In this document: positions 7,169 to 30,676 of the stretch, piece by piece | How the letters are laid out: every line of letters starts with the position of its first letter | Position numbering within the stretch: the first letter of the stretch is position 1 | Assembly: GCA_005191425.1 (NCBI GenBank) | Contig: SUPR01000006.1 | Coordinates: 1 to 32,000 of the forward strand | Direction: 5' to 3' | Length of the DNA stretch: 32,000 nucleotides | DNA from: Candidatus Helarchaeota ASGARD archaeon Hel_GB_B | Lineage (GTDB): Archaea; Asgardarchaeota; Lokiarchaeia; Helarchaeales; HEL-GB-B | The notes under the pieces: generated by a model | The model's input: the letters and a program-made list of their open reading frames with translations, nothing else | The model's database searches: none | What the model was told of the DNA's origin: nothing | Made by a program: the position numbers and the translations under genes

Positions 7169-9328
7169 ATGGTGATAATAATTCGAATATATAAATATTT
7201 TAAAGGAATTTTTCTGATTGTCGGTATAATACTAATGACAATAGGAGTTATATTGGGTGCTAACTTTAAATATAATTTATCTGGAGTAACATTTACACCA
7301 TTTCAAATATCTGCTTCGGAAACAGCGGCATATGGTAATTATGCTGCATATAATCAATCAGGAGTAGTAATTAGAGGAACAATTATTCAACCTAAAATTC
7401 CAGTCTATTCATCGGGAGGATTAAGGCCTGCGGTATTCTTTTTTCACGGGCTTTTTGCAAGAAAAGAATTTCATTATCATTATGCAATTGAGCTTGCTAG
7501 GGCAGGATTTGTAGTAATATGTCCAGATCATGGTGGAATGGGCGATTCTATCGGAACTTTCAAGTTGGGATGGGATATAATTCCATTTGTAATGACAGTA
7601 ATTGACCATTTACCAGCTCTTAACGCGACATATCACCTAAGAATTAATGGGAGCGCAGTAGGGGCTACTGGACATTCGTATGGTGGAATATCAACACTTT
7701 ATGCCGGGCTTTATCGACCATATAATAAGACCACAGGCAGAGGAGTTTCAGCTTGCGCTTCGATTTGGTCATGGTCAAATTTTACTCAGACAATTCAATA
7801 TATGGTATCAAATTATGGTGACCCTCCCTGGCAACTTCTTGAGCTAGTGAATTTACAATATATTCTGGCAGATCCTTATGGCGCTGATAATATGGCTGCA
7901 AATATTGAAGCTCGAAATACCATAGATAAGGTCAATGGGACTTCTGGAAATTATCTACCACCAAATTGGTTGTTAATTACATCTTGGGATGATGGATTTG
8001 TTCTACCCGAATGGCAAATAGAATTAATGGCTAATGCATGTTATGACAATTCCAATCCGTCATTAAGTTCATCTGTATACTATAATTATATTAAAAATAA
8101 CATAACATATGCTAATAATTTTACATGGCAAAAACCTGGTGGGTCATTTAAAAATAGGTCTATGAGGCAAATTTTCTTACCAAGAGATACATATGGATTC
8201 CCAATGGGCCATTTGACTGAAGGCTTTTTAGTACCACCATTAATAATGTTATTAAATTGGTTTGGAAATGCGTTTAACTGGAATGTATCAAATGAAATTT
8301 CAAGAATACAAGCTGAAGAAATTGATTTAAGCAGGACTATTTCATTTTGGCCGGCTCCAATTCAAGGACTAGTAATTCAAATGTATTTAGGACCTATATT
8401 AATAATATTAGGGCTCATTGTTTCGATTTTTCCAATAATTAGCTATTTGGCTAGAGGAAAGCGGTCTGATGATGAGTATCAAATATCACAATTTACATTT
8501 CCAAAAGGTACTTCATTATCTACAAAAGAATCTCTGGCATTTATTGCTATATTTAGTGCAATATATATCGGAATTTCTTTACCTTCATTGTTAATATCTA
8601 GCTATTTTAATATAAAGCTATTAATTCCATATTTGGTAGCAGACTCGCTTGCTTCAAGTTGGCTTATTAAAAGCTTAATTGGAATTGCTATATTAATACC
8701 AATTCTCTGGATTTATTTCAACAAGTATAATCAGAATTTTACTGATATTGGTATTTCGTTTGATAAAAAGAAATTACTATATTCTGCTATTGTGGGTATT
8801 GGATTTCCTCTGATTTTCTTTGGACTATGGGATTTATTGAACCTTTTCACTACATTTCCATTATTAATCCCTATGCCAAGTCCTACAGTCGGATATCTTG
8901 GATTTGCTATATTGCTATTGTTTATATTCATTTCTGCTATTATTGACGAGCTATTTTTAAGAGGATTAATACAAACAAAAATGGAAGCAAAAATACAGGA
9001 AAGTAACAGAATTACTCATAATAAGAGGATTAAAAAATGGATAGCATATTTTATTTCAGTGATTCTAAGTTTAATATTAACTTTAACAGCAACATTGGGT
9101 TCACTTATATTAACAGTAAGTCCAGCTGCTTTCCTAGGCAATATTGATGGTACAAATTTCGCAACCCCAATCTTACTTCTAGGTGTTATTGTTTCATTAG
9201 TCCCATCGATAGTCAATCCATATATCTATCAAAGAACTCGATCTATTTGGGCATGCGTATTCTTTACAACAATCTTCTTAGGTATATTTTTTACTTCTAG
9301 GCTTGGTCTAGGACTGACTACTTTCTAA
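7169..9328 (+). CDS. secreted-type alpha/beta hydrolase fused to a multi-TM, degenerate CPBP (CAAX protease/Abi)-like domain
   Basis: N-terminal TM/signal; FFHGLF, DHGGMGDS, GHSYGG, WDDGFV, GHLTE; about 9-10 hydrophobic segments after ~aa 410, containing IIDELFLRGLIQ and YIYQRTRSIW. Confidence 0.75.
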   Translation: MVIIIRIYKYFKGIFLIVGIILMTIGVILGANFKYNLSGVTFTPFQISASETAAYGNYAAYNQSGVVIRGTIIQPKIPVYSSGGLRPAVFFFHGLFARKEFHYHYAIELARAGFVVICPDHGGMGDSIGTFKLGWDIIPFVMTVIDHLPALNATYHLRINGSAVGATGHSYGGISTLYAGLYRPYNKTTGRGVSACASIWSWSNFTQTIQYMVSNYGDPPWQLLELVNLQYILADPYGADNMAANIEARNTIDKVNGTSGNYLPPNWLLITSWDDGFVLPEWQIELMANACYDNSNPSLSSSVYYNYIKNNITYANNFTWQKPGGSFKNRSMRQIFLPRDTYGFPMGHLTEGFLVPPLIMLLNWFGNAFNWNVSNEISRIQAEEIDLSRTISFWPAPIQGLVIQMYLGPILIILGLIVSIFPIISYLARGKRSDDEYQISQFTFPKGTSLSTKESLAFIAIFSAIYIGISLPSLLISSYFNIKLLIPYLVADSLASSWLIKSLIGIAILIPILWIYFNKYNQNFTDIGISFDKKKLLYSAIVGIGFPLIFFGLWDLLNLFTTFPLLIPMPSPTVGYLGFAILLLFIFISAIIDELFLRGLIQTKMEAKIQESNRITHNKRIKKWIAYFISVILSLILTLTATLGSLILTVSPAAFLGNIDGTNFATPILLLGVIVSLVPSIVNPYIYQRTRSIWACVFFTTIFLGIFFTSRLGLGLTTF

Positions 9329-13901: not shown

Positions 13902-14483
13902 TTAGCCCATTAATCCTAGATCAAAGTCATATTCATCTGCAAGAACATCAAGTAAAGGTCTGATAGCCATTGCTTTTGTCATGTCACCTTCTAATTGGAT
14001 TTCGCCAGACATGTAAGCTTGCATTGCATCTAAATCACCAGTAGCCATTTTCATAAAAGTACTTTCGTCCATCTTGATTTTTAGGCTGGCGTCTTCAATA
14101 TCTCCTTCACCTGCACTGAACTTTCCTTCTTCGATCTTCATATAGATATTAACATTCATATCTGGTACAGATATTACGATAGTCATATCATCAATGTCTT
14201 CTAATTCTTCTTGAGCTTCTTCACTTGCTTCTAATAATTCTTGCATTCCTTTGAACATTACGGGTAAAAATTTTGGAATGATTTCTTTTAAGTCATCTGA
14301 AGACAAGTCAGCAATTTTTTCTCTCATTGAAGGCAAAAAGTCTTTAAGGTCATCGTCCTTTACTATATTTAAGAATCCTACTTTCTCGGTCATATCGATT
14401 ACTTTTAAAATCTTATCCTTTGAGAGTCCTTCTTCTAAATCTTTTATTAAGCTTTTATATTCATCCAAACTCATAAATACCAC
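13902..14483 (-). CDS. SCP2 sterol/lipid-binding domain protein with an acidic helical N-terminus
   Basis: C-terminal YMKIEEGKFSAGEG..DASLKIKMDESTFMKMATGDLDAMQAYMSGEIQLEGDMTKAM is the typical SCP2 pattern. Confidence 0.88.
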   Translation of the reverse strand: MVFMSLDEYKSLIKDLEEGLSKDKILKVIDMTEKVGFLNIVKDDDLKDFLPSMREKIADLSSDDLKEIIPKFLPVMFKGMQELLEASEEAQEELEDIDDMTIVISVPDMNVNIYMKIEEGKFSAGEGDIEDASLKIKMDESTFMKMATGDLDAMQAYMSGEIQLEGDMTKAMAIRPLLDVLADEYDFDLGLMG

Positions 14484-14601: not shown

Positions 14602-15522
14602 TTATATTTCAGGTGCCCATTCAATTTTCTCAAGGTATTCAATTAAATTTTTAATCATATTTTGATGAAATTCATCATCACTGTATGGTCCAAGGCTATC
14701 TAATAAATTTTTCAAGAATTCTTTGTTTTCTTCATCTCTTTGTTGCATTACAAGTTTATAGTCTAATAACAACGTAAGAGTTTCTTGTAATTCACTTATC
14801 ATTTTCTGAGATTTTTCCAGTTCTTGTTCTAATTTTTTAATTTTGGAATTGAGTTCATTTTCAATTCTTTGACGTTCTAACTTTTTTTCTAATGCTAACT
14901 TAATATGAAGCATTGAATCTTTAGATTTTAGTTTTTGAGTTAATTCGTTTATTGTTTCTTTAAGTAAATTAATCGTAACATCTCTATCATTAAGTTTTTC
15001 TTTTAATTTCTCATTCTCTTCTTTAATTTTATCTAATTCGGTTTTTGTCGATAATATTATCTGGAGTTCATCTTCATTTATTTTGATTTTATCATTGATT
15101 AGTATATCATACAATTTTGGAAGAGTCTCAATATACGACTTTCCAATTTTAGCTAAAACTTCTTTTTCAGTTGTGGTCCTGGCATCGAACCGTTCTAAAG
15201 GTAGTTCTCCTAGCACAATTTTTGCACCTAATGGTAATGTTTTTGTATAATTCTTTTTATCTTCATTTTTGTCCAGTAGTAAAGAAATTGCAAAATTTGG
15301 AGCGATATAATAATTAGCTGTTATTAAACCTGAAAAAAAACTAATTACATTCAGGTTTTTTAATTTTAATGTAATAACATTTGCATCTAATTGTCGCATT
15401 CGGTGTAAACTCCCAATTCTCATTATTTCATCTTCAGTGATTTTCAAATTTTCAGGATATTTATGAATTAAGAAAAAACCTTCTTTATTAGTCCAACCTA
15501 TTAAAATTATTCCTTTAGGCAT
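14602..15522 (-). CDS. longin/uDENN-like N-terminal domain plus a long coiled coil
   Basis: MPKGIILIGWTNKEGFFLIHKYPE (W-x4-G-x6-YP)...VISFFSG...AISLLLDKNED; residues ~150-255 are an E/K/L-rich heptad region. Confidence 0.6.
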   Translation of the reverse strand: MPKGIILIGWTNKEGFFLIHKYPENLKITEDEIMRIGSLHRMRQLDANVITLKLKNLNVISFFSGLITANYYIAPNFAISLLLDKNEDKKNYTKTLPLGAKIVLGELPLERFDARTTTEKEVLAKIGKSYIETLPKLYDILINDKIKINEDELQIILSTKTELDKIKEENEKLKEKLNDRDVTINLLKETINELTQKLKSKDSMLHIKLALEKKLERQRIENELNSKIKKLEQELEKSQKMISELQETLTLLLDYKLVMQQRDEENKEFLKNLLDSLGPYSDDEFHQNMIKNLIEYLEKIEWAPEI

Positions 15523-21313: not shown

Positions 21314-21572
21314 ATAATCATCTCTTTTTTTAAATCTTCTATTTTTATTAAGTTAAAATACTTTTTTAGCTTTAAAAACCTTGTGAATTTAGGTCATTTA
21401 TTACTTAATTGTTAATCAATTGGGTATTTAATTGAAAATATTTTCTAAAATTCTTTTATATTATTTTTCACACAATTTTTTATTGAATTAGTAAGAAAGA
21501 ATATGAAAAATAATTAGAAGCATAATTTTGATAATTTTAAACTTATGTACTAATGTTATCATAGTGAAAATA

Positions 21573-22364
21573 ATGAAATCTAATAAAATAATAACAGGAA
21601 TTCAAGGATTTGATGAGTTGATTGAAGGTGGGCTAAATGAATGCGATTCTATACTGTTAATTGGGGGGCCTGGGACAGGTAAAACAATATTTGGACTTCA
21701 ATATATAGTTAATGGAATAAAATATTATAATGAGGCTGGACTGATTGTGCTATTGAAAAATCAAATAGAAGAAATTCGTTTAAAATTAAATTATTTCGGT
21801 TTAAATTTAGATAAATTAATAAATCGAAATCAACTGAATATACTTGATGTATCACCAATTATTACATTGATGGAAAATGGAAATTATAAAATAAAAATAA
21901 AAAATGAGTCAGATACATTAATTGGTGATAAAGATTTTAATATACGAGAGATAATTTCAAGTATTCACCTTAAAAGGAGAAAAATTGAATTTAAAAGGGT
22001 TTTAATTGATTCTTTAATGCCATTATTACTAAAATATGATGATTCATTTCTTTTTATGACTGAATTTGAATTATTATTAAAATCTTTAAAAAAAGCCAAT
22101 ATGACTTCACTGATTTTAACTGAAAATAGTTTTAATAACGATAATTTAAAAATAGCAACACATTTGGTAGATGGAGTAATAAAACTGACATTATCAAGAT
22201 ATGGAAATACTAAAATTAGATATTTGGACATTATTAAAATGTCGAACTTGGGCCATATCTTAGCTACCAAATTATTTGATATTTCAGAACTAGGTATCAA
22301 AATTTTATCTGATAAAAAGATTTCACTAAATGAATCAATTGAAACACTTGATTTAAAGGTATAA
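21573..22364 (+). CDS. single-domain KaiC/RAD55-like RecA-fold ATPase, apparently degenerate; start revised from 21528 to ATG 21573
   Basis: TGIQGFDELIEGGL, GGPGTGKT (Walker A), RVLIDSL (Walker B), VDGVIKL, RYLDIIKM. Confidence 0.85.
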   Translation: MKSNKIITGIQGFDELIEGGLNECDSILLIGGPGTGKTIFGLQYIVNGIKYYNEAGLIVLLKNQIEEIRLKLNYFGLNLDKLINRNQLNILDVSPIITLMENGNYKIKIKNESDTLIGDKDFNIREIISSIHLKRRKIEFKRVLIDSLMPLLLKYDDSFLFMTEFELLLKSLKKANMTSLILTENSFNNDNLKIATHLVDGVIKLTLSRYGNTKIRYLDIIKMSNLGHILATKLFDISELGIKILSDKKISLNESIETLDLKV

Positions 22365-22375
22365 GTGAGTATAAT

Positions 22376-23350
22376 ATGATCTGCATAGTAATATCATTTT
22401 TTGATAATATAAATGGACCAAGACCTTTATTAAGCATTCCAAATACATTAAATGATATAGATCTAAATAATATAGCTTCATTAATTGACAAAACCTTTGA
22501 GACAGGATTTTTTATTTATGAATTTCCTGAATATAAGACTGCTAATTATTTTTTTGAGATTGAATCCGAATGGGCTCGTGGAAACAAAGAAATGGTACTA
22601 TTAACCATTGTATTTGATTTGAATTTTGATTATAATTCATTGGATTTACAGACTATTATGAATGATTTTATAAATGAATTGTCCAATATTACTAACCTAT
22701 TTAAAGCATTTTATATTTTTGATTTTAATAGAAAAAAGGACAATGAAGTTAAATTTTATTATGAAAAATTGAAGGAACTTATTATAGATTTTAAAGGTTC
22801 TCTTCCAAAAGAAACTCTGGCAGTAAACCAGAATCAAATTAAAATTTTTGTTTTTGGACTTGATAGAGCAGGAAAATCTACTATACTAAATCGAGCGAAA
22901 ACCAATTTATTTGTTAAGACCTCTCCGACCATAAATTTGAATATAATGCACCTTTTATTTGGTAATATTCAACTTGATTGTTTTGATGTGAGTGGTCAAA
23001 AGCGATATCGATATACTTGGCGGAGGTTTATAGTTTCATCCCAGTATTTAGTTTTCGTATTAGATGTTAACAGAGAAGATAGATATGAAGAAGCAAAAAT
23101 TGAATTGTGGAAGGTCTTAAGTTATGAAGAAAGTAAAGGTATTCCGTTACTAATATTAATTAATAAGACAGACTTAAAAAAGAAAATAGACTTGAATTAT
23201 TTTATAAATTTTTTAAATTTGTATAAGATTAAGGACAGAAAATGGCATATTATGTCTACATCTGCATTATATAATCAAGGAATAAAAGAAGCATTTGAAT
23301 ATATAATAAAAGATTTATTGTCTAACCAATTAACAATGTTTTCTATGTGA
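22376..23350 (+). CDS. uDENN/longin-like domain fused to an Arf-like small GTPase
   Basis: N-terminal SFFDNINGPRPLLSIP...FEIESEWARGNKEMVLL. GTPase motifs GLDRAGKST, PTINLN, FDVSGQKRYRYTW, NKTD, TSALYNQGIKEAF. Confidence 0.88.
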   Translation: MICIVISFFDNINGPRPLLSIPNTLNDIDLNNIASLIDKTFETGFFIYEFPEYKTANYFFEIESEWARGNKEMVLLTIVFDLNFDYNSLDLQTIMNDFINELSNITNLFKAFYIFDFNRKKDNEVKFYYEKLKELIIDFKGSLPKETLAVNQNQIKIFVFGLDRAGKSTILNRAKTNLFVKTSPTINLNIMHLLFGNIQLDCFDVSGQKRYRYTWRRFIVSSQYLVFVLDVNREDRYEEAKIELWKVLSYEESKGIPLLILINKTDLKKKIDLNYFINFLNLYKIKDRKWHIMSTSALYNQGIKEAFEYIIKDLLSNQLTMFSM

Positions 23351-23377
23351 AAAAAATTTTAATTTATTTTTAATTTG

Positions 23378-23911
23378 TTATTTTTGAATTTGTGAGATTG
23401 TCATTAATATTTTTTTTCCCAAATTTTTGAATGCTAAATCAATATTTTCCCCTGTTTTAGCTGAAGTTTCTAAAAATTCAATTCTAAGTTCTTGTGCTAA
23501 TTTTTCGCCTTCACTTTTAGTGATCATTCGTTGTTCTGTTAAATCAACTTTATTTCCAACTAATATCATGGGAATTTTATGTCCTACATTTACCATTAAA
23601 CGAGAGAACCACTCTTTTACAGCATCAAAAGTATTTCTACGTGTAATATCATAAACTATTAATGCAGCTTCTGCTTTACCATAAAAACGCTTTGCCATAT
23701 TTTGAAAAAGGTTTTGCCCACCAATATCCCAGATAACAAATGTTAATTCAGTGTCCAGGTCTTCGAATAAATATTCTTTTGCCATAATATTGACGCCCAT
23801 AGTACTTTTATAATCATGAATAAATTTGTGATGGACAAATGAATTGAGAACCGCAGTTTTTCCTACCATATATGACCCAATTATTATTACTTTTTTCTTA
23901 ATTTTAATCAT
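23378..23911 (-). CDS. Rab-like small GTPase without a C-terminal prenylation Cys
   Basis: GSYMVGKT, YKSTMGVN, WDIGGQ, FYGKAEAALIVYDIT, GNKVDL, ETSAKTG. Its start overlaps the upstream stop (ATGA, 23908-23911). Confidence 0.93.
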   Translation of the reverse strand: MIKIKKKVIIIGSYMVGKTAVLNSFVHHKFIHDYKSTMGVNIMAKEYLFEDLDTELTFVIWDIGGQNLFQNMAKRFYGKAEAALIVYDITRRNTFDAVKEWFSRLMVNVGHKIPMILVGNKVDLTEQRMITKSEGEKLAQELRIEFLETSAKTGENIDLAFKNLGKKILMTISQIQK

Positions 23912-24903
23912 TTAAATTCCTCCCTTCTAGAAATCTGGTTTATTGGCCTTAATAACGAATAATATTTGTAAATGGGTTTAATGCTAAGTGAATTTTTGAC
24001 AATATTTGCTTTGCAGTCCAAACATTGGTAGAATTCATTCAATTCTTTAAAATATTTCTTACATTTTAAACAATAATGATAATGTCCTAATCTTTGATAG
24101 TCTACTCCTTCAGTTTCTAATTTAAGATTACATTTCATACAAATCATATCATTTTTTATGAACTCATTTTCAAAATCAATATGTCCACATTTAAAGTGTT
24201 CAATAATATTACCTTCAATTATCGTAGATGAATTACAAATTGGACAAATTTTCGATGTTTTAAGATGACTTGATCCACATGAAGGACAAACAACTAAATT
24301 ATCGACCATATATTTTCCTACTATATTTTGTTTTTCCAATTCTTTTAACAAATCTTCGGCTTTAATAGAATTTCCAGCAATTTGTTCCAACTTAGGATAA
24401 TGGACACCATGTATATAATCATATTGGGGAGTAAAAATCGTAGATGGATTTTTTTCTAGAAATTTGACTACTTTGGAAATTTTATACGCTATAATGGGAC
24501 TTACAGGACAATTATTAATTTCGGATATTTTACTCGCTTTTTCAACTATTTCATTAAATAATTGTGGAATAATTTCGTGAGCTTTATCTAAATTTTGGAT
24601 AATTTTATAAAATTGCTCTTTTAAAATTGGTTTAAAAAATCTTGGTGTTTCATTTTCTTCAAGAATTAACATCAAAAGTAAATTATTTTCCCTGCCGCCA
24701 TAATAACATGCGATATGAAATTCATCTGTAAAAAGGGCAGAGAATCGTTCAGTAGTAATATCACCCATTGTCTGAGAGGTAAAAATAAATAATACTTTTT
24801 CTGTATTAAAAACTTTTTTAATCTCATCATCATCTGGATAAATTTCATCTAGTATTGCTCCTATACTATCGTCCCAATGAATTAAAGCTAGTCCGATTGG
24901 CAT
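23908..24903 (-). CDS. longin/uDENN-like N-terminal domain fused to a multi-zinc-ribbon TackOD1-like domain; start likely ATG 24903
   Basis: MPIGLALIHWDDSIGAILDEIYP at the N-terminus. C-terminal HYPKL...CPSC..CPIC..IEHFKCGH..CMKC..GVDY..CLKC..CLDC (11 Cys). Confidence 0.75.
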   Translation of the reverse strand: MPIGLALIHWDDSIGAILDEIYPDDDEIKKVFNTEKVLFIFTSQTMGDITTERFSALFTDEFHIACYYGGRENNLLLMLILEENETPRFFKPILKEQFYKIIQNLDKAHEIIPQLFNEIVEKASKISEINNCPVSPIIAYKISKVVKFLEKNPSTIFTPQYDYIHGVHYPKLEQIAGNSIKAEDLLKELEKQNIVGKYMVDNLVVCPSCGSSHLKTSKICPICNSSTIIEGNIIEHFKCGHIDFENEFIKNDMICMKCNLKLETEGVDYQRLGHYHYCLKCKKYFKELNEFYQCLDCKANIVKNSLSIKPIYKYYSLLRPINQISRREEFK

Positions 24904-25146
24904 TTTTATTTTCAAGAGTTTTTTTAAAATAAATCAATAAAGTTAATTAATATTTACTATAAATTTAGTTTTCAGATGTTATTCATTAATCAAATTAATT
25001 AATATTTTTTTTATCTAAATTTTTGTGAAAATTTGTTGAAAGTCCGTTTTAAGTTCATTATAAATTCTAAAATAAATCTTTAAATTCTATAACATTCAAC
25101 TTATTCTAAACTTAAATTGTCAAAAGTTTAGAAGGATGTTCAATCT

Positions 25147-29431: not shown

Positions 29432-30676
29432 TTAGGTTATTAAATTAGCAATCCAAGGGATTAAGATATCATCATTTTTTATATAGAATTTTTCTGTATT
29501 TTTATGTATACTTGCGAAGAAAACTAATTTATTGTTTAAAAAGCGTTTGATTATAGTAAGAATTTTTTGTCTATCCAAATTAATATCAATTGAATCAATA
29601 TTTTGAAATCTTCCATAATAAAAGATCTCGATATTTAAATTTGAGAGAAAATTTATTAAATAATTATAAAGGTCATTACATATTTCGTCATTTTCAGCCC
29701 AATATCCTAGTTTTAAACATGAACTGTCCATTAGTAATATATTATTTGTCCCAATTTTTTCAGCTTGCTCCCTTAATATATTATTTATAACAAATTTAAC
29801 ATCTTTATTAGCTATTTGTAAAATAGCGTGGGAAAAAAGATTGAAGATTGTCATGTCATCAAATATAGAGGTGATATAAAATTTAAAATTGAAATTCTCT
29901 TCTTTAATTAGAAATTTTATTTCATTTTTCATTTTTTCTAATTTTAAATTGATTTCACGATTGTCTTTAATATTAGGGTCCATTTTGTGGAAACAGATGA
30001 TAATATATGGTTCTTCACTCAAATAATTGTAAATTTTTAAAATGTTTTTTAGATATTCAAGGTTTTCTCCAAATCTATTAGATTGTACATCAATTACATA
30101 AATAACTACGTTAGTACCCACAAAAACCCGATGTGGCTGATTTAAATATTGGGTTCGATATTTTTTTTGCCCGCCCAAATCCCATAATTGAATATCACAG
30201 TAATTTATATCAAATTTTTCGCGTTCAATTCCTTTTGTTGGTTTTAATAAATTTAATGCTTTTAAAAATTCAATGTAATTTTTTTCGTATTTATTAAAGA
30301 ATCGATTTCTTATTGCTGTTTTTCCTGCATTATCAAGCCCAAATAAGTTTATTTTTTTAATATTTTTATTATGTTTATTATCTATTTGCGAAATTAGTTT
30401 AGCTATAATCACATATCTCTCAAATTCAAATCGGTCTATATTTAATTCATTTGAAATTCTATCAATATCATCAATTTCAAGTTTTAATAAATCTTTGATT
30501 TTAAAGATATGAAAGTTTTCTTGGAGAATTTGAGCGATATTTGGACTTATTTCTTTAATTTCAATAATAGATTTATTTAAAATATCTTCTTTTGACACTT
30601 TTTCTTGTAAAGAAATTTTGAAAAATGAATTTATTCGTTGAAATAAATCATCTGATTTTAATGTATTTAATACCAA
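29432..30676 (-). CDS. HhH-like domain + Rag/Gtr-like small GTPase + roadblock-like C-terminal domain
   Basis: IIEIKEISPNIAQILQENFHIFKIKDL; GLDNAGKT, KPTKG, WDLGGQ, CFHKMD, ITSIFD; C-terminal INNILREQAEKIGTNNILLMD. Confidence 0.8.
   Translation of the reverse strand: MVLNTLKSDDLFQRINSFFKISLQEKVSKEDILNKSIIEIKEISPNIAQILQENFHIFKIKDLLKLEIDDIDRISNELNIDRFEFERYVIIAKLISQIDNKHNKNIKKINLFGLDNAGKTAIRNRFFNKYEKNYIEFLKALNLLKPTKGIEREKFDINYCDIQLWDLGGQKKYRTQYLNQPHRVFVGTNVVIYVIDVQSNRFGENLEYLKNILKIYNYLSEEPYIIICFHKMDPNIKDNREINLKLEKMKNEIKFLIKEENFNFKFYITSIFDDMTIFNLFSHAILQIANKDVKFVINNILREQAEKIGTNNILLMDSSCLKLGYWAENDEICNDLYNYLINFLSNLNIEIFYYGRFQNIDSIDINLDRQKILTIIKRFLNNKLVFFASIHKNTEKFYIKNDDILIPWIANLIT

Follow-up and report, generated by a model that had tools for sequence, protein, structure and literature searches.

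Four adjacent genes of the Asgard archaeon Candidatus Helarchaeota Hel_GB_B may form a conserved Helarchaeales small-GTPase switch cassette that is coupled to a prokaryotic-type, transcription-type output; this is the reading that we prefer, and we hold it tentatively. The genes lie in positions 1 to 32,000 of contig SUPR01000006.1 (GenBank assembly GCA_005191425.1), the 32,000-nucleotide stretch referred to here as the window. They encode a KaiC-family protein (A), a longin domain fused to an Arf-family GTPase domain (B), a Rab-like GTPase (C), and a longin domain fused to a TackOD1 output domain (D). The source is a metagenome-assembled genome (MAG) of 3.54 Mb, which is 94% complete with a GC content of ~26%, and the window contig is labeled C150. 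Gene models were taken from an open reading frame (ORF) listing combined with direct reading of the sequence; the layout of the genes, the identities of their domains, the modeled folds, the motifs, and the conservation of linkage are shown by the analysis.

A and B are separated by 11 bp and converge on D and C, which overlap by ATGA; the whole of B spans 22376-23350 (+), and the whole of D spans 23908-24903 (-) (Table 1). An earlier reading, made from the letters alone (the sequence-only reading), had described four genes with gaps of 11 and 27 bp and an ATGA overlap, and the ORF listing and our own reading reproduced this layout exactly. The start codons that it assigned are also correct: the ATG of A at 21573 is backed by the equivalent Met of an ortholog (a longer TTG frame begins at 21528), and the ATG of D at 24903 by all 32 of 32 aligned homologs, which open with MP.G. 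Its four domain calls likewise hold, with Pfam identifying KaiC, Arf, Ras/Rab, and TackOD1, and structure prediction identifying both longins.

The tightest unit of the cluster is the pair formed by D and C. A D-type longin gene is followed directly by a Rab-like gene in six arrangements (window, L001, L003/G128, L046/G123, L002, and L048/G127), at a spacing of ≤12 bp or with an overlap, and orthologs of C lie directly downstream of a D-type longin gene in five other loci. In L002 and G127 the longin is a standalone protein without TackOD1, and the pairing with Rab is kept (in G127 the order is standalone D-type longin, Rab, Arf-like), which argues that the Rab gene follows the longin and not the output domain.

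Linkage also survives in other Helarchaeales families, where order and orientation vary. Three families keep B-like, D-like, and Rab genes together, in convergent orientation in f1 and f3 and colinearly in f2. A is linked in two; its f2 ortholog (40% identity) lies in the same supercluster, and orthologs of A were located on L001, L002, and G125:C50. L001, a 527-kb Helarchaeota contig, carries the same four genes at 62-77% protein identity, and is uninformative by itself because the flanking genes are also shared. The f2 supercluster (G123, G125, and L002) starts with a standalone D-type longin, followed by Ras, a B-like longin-Arf, a Rag-like GTPase, and the A ortholog; it continues with a gene of 231 amino acids (aa) and a TackOD1-Lrp/AsnC regulator, both in reverse orientation, and then a small TackOD1 gene, B-like, D-like, and Rab. 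In G123, B, D, and C are colinear, and B ends ~26 bp before D. In f3 (G128 and L003-5) the order is histidine kinase, response regulator, 168-aa gene, Rag-like, B-like, and Rag-like, followed by a Rab/D-like pair in the opposite orientation, convergent as in the window. Conservation is weakest for A, and in f3 the histidine kinase and response regulator are found in its place. Linkage that outlasts changes in order and orientation in other families leads us to regard the arrangement as more than coincidence. That the genes form one linked module, an idea for which the sequence-only reading had suggested a synteny survey, is borne out to the extent that three families link B, C, and D and two link A.

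B has what looks like a catalytic-type longin. The AlphaFold2 (AF2) model of its N-terminal domain (predicted local distance difference test score [pLDDT], 91.2) shows the longin order, β-β-α-β-β-β-α-α, in which the N-terminal helix of roadblock domains is absent. Foldseek and VIA-align both returned longins for it, and the best VIA-align match is the Lokiarchaeota Roadblock-Longin protein 8yqg (Z, 13.7). Chains 9o5a_H and 7t3b_B, which we take to be NPRL2, matched residues 7-143 with Z scores of 13.1 and 12.6, and 6ulg_L, presumably FLCN, gave 12.2 (chains read as FLCN span 12.2-11.5); generic longins (AP sigma, Sec22b, and Ykt6) gave ~10. Structural neighbors in the ESM Atlas included NPR2, Folliculin, and SMCR8 clusters, at TM scores of 0.70-0.75. 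By closest structural similarity of the model, the B longin appears to belong to the FLCN/NPRL2/SMCR8 class, which fits the uDENN label that it had been given earlier. Motif counts come from an alignment of 10 sequences (A2). A GP motif, G14-P15, opens the strand at residues 14-21 (G in 10/10 homologs, P in 9/10), and Arg68, part of W-A-R-G and present in 10/10, sits in the loop between strands 53-63 and 71-81 (strands 4 and 5).

Profile searches did not identify this domain: none of the 10 B-family members matched Pfam Folliculin (PF11704) or NPR2 (PF06218) at an E value of ≤5, and no longin match to the N-terminal domain of B was returned by Pfam (E ≤ 5), NCBIfam, or a PDB profile search. 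By Pfam, B has no DENN or NPRL2-specific C-terminal domain; an Arf-family G domain, matched over residues 148-313, stands there instead. Its best PDB matches are 8oun ("GTP-binding protein," 9e-30) and then Arf1 and Arl5 (~1e-29), and the G motifs can be read as GLDRAGKS (G1), DVSGQ (G3), and NKTD (G4). The free N-terminal amphipathic helix of Arf proteins, often myristoylated and inserted into membranes, is absent, as a 147-residue longin precedes the G domain. The genome holds two B-type longins. The only other one is C-terminal in a 298-aa protein (G000:C19:8296-8736; locus L045, 1450-2346 -), where a ~130-aa domain precedes it, an organization that recalls 8yqg.

The N-terminal domain of D looks like a partner-type longin. 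Its AF2 model (pLDDT, 89.9) has the topology β-β-α-β-β-β-α-α, and the fold matches found with Foldseek and VIA-align are longins (Z, 11.7-10), 8yqg being the best. In an alignment of 32 sequences (A1), the D-type motif consists of W10 (32/32), D11 (30/32), and G15 (32/32), and P23 is invariant too. The W-D-x3-G spacing is that of C9orf72, with Pro as the next residue in only 12 of the 32 homologs, and no conserved arginine is present among the 32 aligned D-type longins. The N-terminal domain of D had no match in Pfam (E ≤ 5), NCBIfam, or a PDB profile search, and the ESM Atlas gave sub-threshold leads only. The B and D longin families are distantly homologous (hhalign probability, 91.8%; E, 7e-7); BLASTP found no match between the two N-terminal domains, which were linked by profile-profile comparison only. 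Being homologous and carrying complementary motifs (GP plus Arg in one, WD in the other), the two domains may heterodimerize. A complex prediction for the B longin and D longin with the Rab, C, as the partner scored 0.11 against a mark of 0.32, and speaks neither for nor against binding.

The remainder of D matches Pfam TackOD1 (PF18551) over residues 143-314 with 122 bits, against a cutoff of 32. Its motifs CPSC, CPIC, HFKC, CMKC, CLKC, and CLDC amount to five CXXC and one HXXC, in keeping with the published definition of the domain (PMC5847659). This is the only TackOD1 in the genome. D has no REC receiver domain: the longin is N-terminal, and no Response_reg match was found. TackOD1 was defined as a response-regulator output domain that occurs as REC-TackOD1 and as REC-winged helix-turn-helix (wHTH)-TackOD1 (PMC5847659), in agreement with the earlier assignment of TackOD1 to signal transduction. 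At L002 5887-7005 (-), TackOD1 also occurs in one protein with an entire Lrp/AsnC-type regulator, made of HTH_AsnC and a ligand-binding domain, and the same fusion is found at G125:C50:6619-7143 (-) and G123:C330:1053-1577 (-), beside the KaiC ortholog in family f2; it links TackOD1 to transcription regulators.

D-type longins are widespread, occurring in 282 of 400 Asgard genomes; the family comprises 406 representative proteins among 1.84 billion, is nearly always N-terminal, and is probably restricted to Asgard archaea. The C-terminal partners include TackOD1 (5 of 99 representatives), wHTH, TPR, TIR, metallo-β-lactamase, and coiled coils, with many undetected; D-type longins of other Asgard lineages are among those joined to wHTH domains. 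D-type longins also occur near the C terminus of giant proteins of 1,300-2,500 aa (P0060, P0067, P0069, P0088, P0089, P0103, and P0106). Hel_GB_B itself has nine D-type longin genes, three of which adjoin a GTPase gene (rough Poisson P, 0.004). Elsewhere in its genome a Rab-like gene (187 aa) precedes an adjacent D-type longin gene (309 aa) at G000:C163:10841-11743, and a GTPase gene (424 aa) precedes one of 377 aa at G000:C4:7166-8710. A second D-type longin gene of the window, at 14602-15522 (-), encodes 306 aa, with an N-terminal longin and a coiled-coil-like remainder, and adjoins a gene for an SCP2 sterol-carrier-like protein at 13902-14483 (-).

C is closest in the PDB to a Thorarchaeota Rab (5e-35), followed by Rab6, Rab26, Rab14, and Rab7. 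The P-loop, DIGGQ (with the catalytic Gln intact), NKVD, and SAK motifs can all be read in its sequence. The protein ends in ...MTISQIQK, with no C-terminal Cys prenylation motif. The window also encodes, at 7169-9328 (+), a 719-aa protein made of an α/β-hydrolase and a C-terminal Rce1-like CAAX prenyl-protease domain, which is curious given that C lacks a CAAX motif. Ras-superfamily loci number 42 in this genome.

A has Walker A (GGPGTGKT) and Walker B (VLIDS) motifs that align with a solved KaiC structure. In the same alignment the catalytic glutamates of the KaiC "TFEE" motif correspond to "LLKN" (Lys-Asn for Glu-Glu). A also reads "KMSNL" where its paralogs and the f2 orthologs read "KMRGT" (Ser-Asn for Arg-Gly). 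The L001 ortholog shares both losses, the two proteins reading "KMSNL" or "KLSNI," whereas the f2 orthologs retain the Glu-Glu pair and the Arg. Because the catalytic Glu pair and the Arg are lost, A is probably not an active ATPase in this lineage; its residues point to nucleotide binding as a scaffold or sensor more than to ATPase or autokinase activity. A is a single domain, without the tandem CI-CII arrangement of the clock protein KaiC, and scored far below the cutoffs of the NCBIfam full-length KaiC models. An insertion of ~9 residues marks the GTPase-linked KaiC subfamily to which A belongs. Of the three KaiC-like genes in the genome, two have a GTPase gene as neighbor (rough Poisson P, 0.005). 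The locus G000:C109:12788-14311 (L056, 1453-3120 +) is one such case: a gene for a 260-aa KaiC-like protein that retains the Glu-Glu pair and the Arg is followed after 1 bp by a gene for a 294-aa protein with a ~125-aa N-terminal domain and an Arf-type G domain, and the two look like a paralogous KaiC-GTPase pair. A KaiC-like frame at G000:C110:27262-28014 (-) holds four in-frame TAA stops and may be a pseudogene or an assembly error.

KaiC-like ATPases have reportedly been described as archaeal signaling hubs, by Makarova et al. in 2017. A resembles such hubs in being a single-domain KaiC-family protein encoded beside signaling genes, and differs from them in lacking the catalytic Glu pair and the Arg and in being linked to small GTPases and longins. 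The sequence-only reading had cast A as a KaiC-like ATPase hub; the KaiC family assignment stands, and an active ATPase is improbable. Inactivated KaiC-like domains ("iKaiC") are mentioned in PMC5847659.

The two longins invite comparison with eukaryotic GTPase-activating protein (GAP) complexes. In C9orf72-SMCR8(-WDR41), FLCN-FNIP, and NPRL2-NPRL3, two homologous longins form a platform for Arf, Rab, or Rag GTPases, and one of them has the GP motif and an arginine finger. According to a 2025 survey (PMC12290439), FLCN, NPRL2, and SMCR8, the GAP-type longins, have in common an arginine finger and a GP motif that precedes strand 2; in C9orf72, W33-D34 is followed by G38-P39; and one Asgard longin class has the GP and Arg features without known partners. 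B, with G14-P15 and R68, is nearest NPRL2/FLCN, and D carries W10-D11-x3-G15. The block differs from the eukaryotic complexes in that its longins have no DENN or NPRL2 C-terminal domains and are fused to an Arf G domain and to TackOD1, and in that they show no Pfam Folliculin or NPR2 match and no lysosomal or TOR context; both pairing and GAP activity are predicted.

Other known systems share parts of the arrangement. D has the same C-terminal domain of five CXXC and one HXXC motifs, after an N-terminal input module, as REC-TackOD1 and REC-wHTH-TackOD1 (Galperin et al. 2018, PMC5847659); its input is a longin instead of a phospho-receiver, and the implied upstream signal is a GTPase and not a histidine kinase, although in f3 a kinase and a response regulator adjoin the cluster. 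The pair of D and C resembles MglA-MglB in joining, in an operon, a small GTPase to a regulator of the roadblock/longin superfamily; MglB, in contrast, has roadblock topology and is a stand-alone homodimer, whereas D has a longin fold fused to an output domain. More generally, dimers of longin or roadblock domains act as GTPase platforms, for example in TRAPP, Mon1-Ccz1, DENN, FLCN, GATOR1, and MglB (PMC10933270). A conserved Asgard operon of a LAMTOR1-like Roadblock, a Rab-like GTPase, and a DENN protein, proposed to be FLCN-like, is described in a preprint (Liu et al., bioRxiv 10.1101/2020.10.19.343400). Like the present block, it is a conserved cluster joining a Rab-like GTPase to roadblock/longin-superfamily regulators; the block differs in lacking DENN and LAMTOR1-like members, in its narrow distribution (Helarchaeales), and in having an output domain and a KaiC-family gene.

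Longins fused to GTPases, and NPRL2-like longins joined to domains of two-component systems, have already been reported from Asgard archaea (Liu et al., bioRxiv 10.1101/2020.10.19.343400; Tran et al., PMC10933270). B is the published architecture of a longin fused to a Rag/Arf-like GTPase, and D fits the pattern of eukaryote-like longins wired into prokaryotic signaling. The concept is therefore not new, since longin-GTPase fusions and NPRL2-like signaling fusions are already published. No description of the exact four-gene arrangement was found in the searchable literature, in which one paper mentions TackOD1; that literature likewise yielded no longin joined to TackOD1, no coupling of such a gene to a Rab gene, no conserved trio that includes a GAP-type longin-Arf, and no recurrent adjacency of KaiC and GTPase genes. 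The earlier remark that the arrangement seemed undescribed thus survives for the exact gene set, for which no paper was found, and fails for the concept, which the preprint of Liu et al. already contains.

In the switch cassette that we tentatively prefer, C would be made together with D through translational coupling, and the D longin is predicted to be the docking platform for C. Longin-TackOD1 parallels REC-TackOD1 and longin-wHTH parallels REC-wHTH, which puts the longin at the input position; in D it would sit where REC sits in TackOD1 response regulators. The nucleotide state of C would then gate the zinc-ribbon TackOD1 part of D, probably a nucleic-acid or transcription-related output. 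B would add a second, homologous longin, with its GP motif and invariant Arg, plus an Arf-family G domain. This longin is a predicted GTPase-activating element, most plausibly paired with the D longin, and its target could be C or the G domain of B itself. A would most likely bind nucleotide as a scaffold or sensor for the input, and the upstream module appears to be exchangeable, f3 having a kinase and a response regulator where A would be.

Several observations weigh against this reading. The cluster of family f3 contains no A-type KaiC. The block was not found, with the queries used, in G126, a genome of the same genus that is 93% complete; these queries detected neither TackOD1 nor any close relative of A or D in it, and either the block is patchy among close relatives or it is unassembled in G126. 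The B-like genes of Lokiarchaeia adjoin large TPR proteins and no D-type longin: these neighbors are 670-690 aa long and do not match the D-type profile (L057, L058, and L060), and one locus has a second B-like paralog. They may represent a different conserved partnership, and, because TPR neighbors take the place of D-type longins there, the pairing of B and D is lineage-specific. Arg68 is no more than a candidate equivalent of NPRL2 R78, FLCN R164, and SMCR8 R147. The fold does not place the D longin in any one subclass, its Z scores being tied at 10-11.7 and C9orf72 (~10) not being favored over other longins, and the residue after G15 in D itself is Ala, not Pro. Six of the nine D-type longin genes of the genome have no GTPase neighbor, and TackOD1 carries no assigned function (PMC5847659). 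The binding events, the GAP activity, the direction of the signal, and the nature of the output are things that we infer.

The strongest alternative, which we think somewhat unlikely, is that two independent two-gene units happen to lie near each other. D and C would be self-contained, with a D longin homodimer acting on C as guanine nucleotide exchange factor (GEF), GAP, or effector in the manner of MglB and MglA; A and B would be a separate KaiC/GTPase pair in which the B longin has no target but the G domain fused to it, whether in cis or within a B homodimer. Longin and roadblock domains do commonly homodimerize, and the best match of both domains, 8yqg, is a homodimeric Lokiarchaeota longin. 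The C109 pair, a KaiC gene followed by an N-terminal domain plus Arf, has no D-type longin or Rab nearby; G127 has a D-type longin followed by Rab and no B-type longin; and the Lokiarchaeial B-like genes are without D-like neighbors. Set against this alternative is the recurrence of B-like genes within a few kilobases of the D-C pair in three families despite rearrangement, down to the colinear genes of G123 with their gap of ~26 bp, and the complementarity of the longin motifs, Arg and GP in B and WD in D.

A more far-reaching proposal, which we consider unlikely, goes beyond a switch cassette: the cluster would be an archaeal forerunner of heterodimeric longin GAPs of the C9orf72-SMCR8/FLCN-FNIP type, in which the B and D longins act on the Rab encoded between them, with TackOD1 as output and the degenerate KaiC as sensor, a GTPase-based analogue of a two-component system. 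More doubtful again is a role in membranes or cell architecture, such as Arf and Rab have in eukaryotes, and not in gene expression; TackOD1 would then be a zinc module that binds proteins or membranes. In favor of it, thaumarchaeal type IV pilus loci have been reported to contain TackOD1 genes, Asgard Arf-family proteins can bind membranes (PMC11914678), and paralogs of the D longin are joined to TPR and coiled-coil segments. Against it, the N terminus of B is taken up by a longin and offers no free amphipathic helix, and C lacks a cysteine for prenylation. TackOD1 is found together with DNA-binding domains of the wHTH and Lrp/AsnC types, many D-type longins likewise carry a wHTH, and the flanks of the block hold no membrane or pilus genes. 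Juxtaposition by chance, or a recent one without functional meaning, is very improbable: so many Ras-superfamily loci and D-type longins in one genome will often produce such neighbors, and L001, the closest relative, shares the flanking housekeeping genes, but linkage is kept in f2 and f3 with wholly different flanks and gene order, D and C are translationally coupled, and longin/GTPase and KaiC/GTPase adjacency is enriched within the genome.

The features of the block and its immediate surroundings are collected in Table 1.

Table 1. Features of the four-gene block and adjoining intergenic regions, in window coordinates
Feature	Position	Strand	Basis
Intergenic region upstream of A, AT-rich; presumed A-B promoter	21314..21572	+	Sequence read
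A, single-domain KaiC-family P-loop protein, 263 aa	21573..22364	+	Pfam KaiC, 4e-47
B residues 1-147, longin, probable FLCN/NPRL2/SMCR8 class	22376..22816	+	AF2, VIA-align, ESM Atlas
B residues 148-324, Arf-family GTPase domain	22817..23350	+	Pfam Arf, 5e-43
Convergent B/C gap, 27 bp; putative bidirectional terminator	23351..23377	.	Sequence read
C, Rab-like small GTPase, 177 aa	23378..23911	-	Pfam Ras, 2e-47
D residues 141-331, TackOD1 output domain	23908..24483	-	Pfam TackOD1, 2.5e-35
D residues 1-140, D-type longin	24484..24903	-	AF2, fold search, hhalign
D/adenylate kinase divergent intergenic region; presumed D-C promoter	24904..25146	-	Sequence read

The gap between B and C has T-runs on each strand and is a plausible bidirectional archaeal oligo-T terminator. 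The flanks of the block are ordinary metabolism, with an epimerase and an aldehyde:ferredoxin oxidoreductase upstream and an adenylate kinase and a homocysteine-biosynthesis enzyme downstream. A 414-aa Rag/Gtr1-like GTPase (Gtr1_RagA, 2e-27) is encoded ~4.5 kb from the block, at 29432-30676 (-). It keeps its relative position in L001, and the whole window is syntenic with that contig. The divergent region between D and adenylate kinase contains an imperfect direct repeat of 40 nucleotides (24933-24972 and 24985-25024; 73% identity; core, TTAATTAATATTT), which may be a regulator site or merely AT-rich background. Other repeats in the block looked like AT-rich background only, and Rfam found no structured RNA in it. 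An anti-phage defense function was considered and rejected: PADLOC matched A to IetA only marginally, through the P-loop (6e-4 over 38 residues), and gave no match for the other three proteins.

Asgard genomes contain dozens of small GTPases and longin/roadblock proteins, and few regulators have been matched to their GTPases, because operons seldom join them (Tran et al. 2024, PMC10933270); in MK-D1, the same authors state, GTPase genes generally lie outside operons with longin or roadblock genes. A Rab-like GTPase that is coupled to one longin gene, and conserved beside a GAP-type longin, thus offers a rare and testable case in which a GTPase can be matched to probable regulators: the cluster singles out three proteins, one specific GTPase and two candidate regulators. 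A further outcome is the delineation of a small longin family, probably confined to Asgard archaea, whose N-terminal "input" domains are fused to TackOD1, wHTH, TPR, TIR, and other domains. If the two longins do pair and stimulate GTP hydrolysis, the heterodimeric longin-GAP design of folliculin, GATOR1, and C9orf72-SMCR8 would predate eukaryotes, and its original job may have been signaling to gene expression and not the control of organelles.

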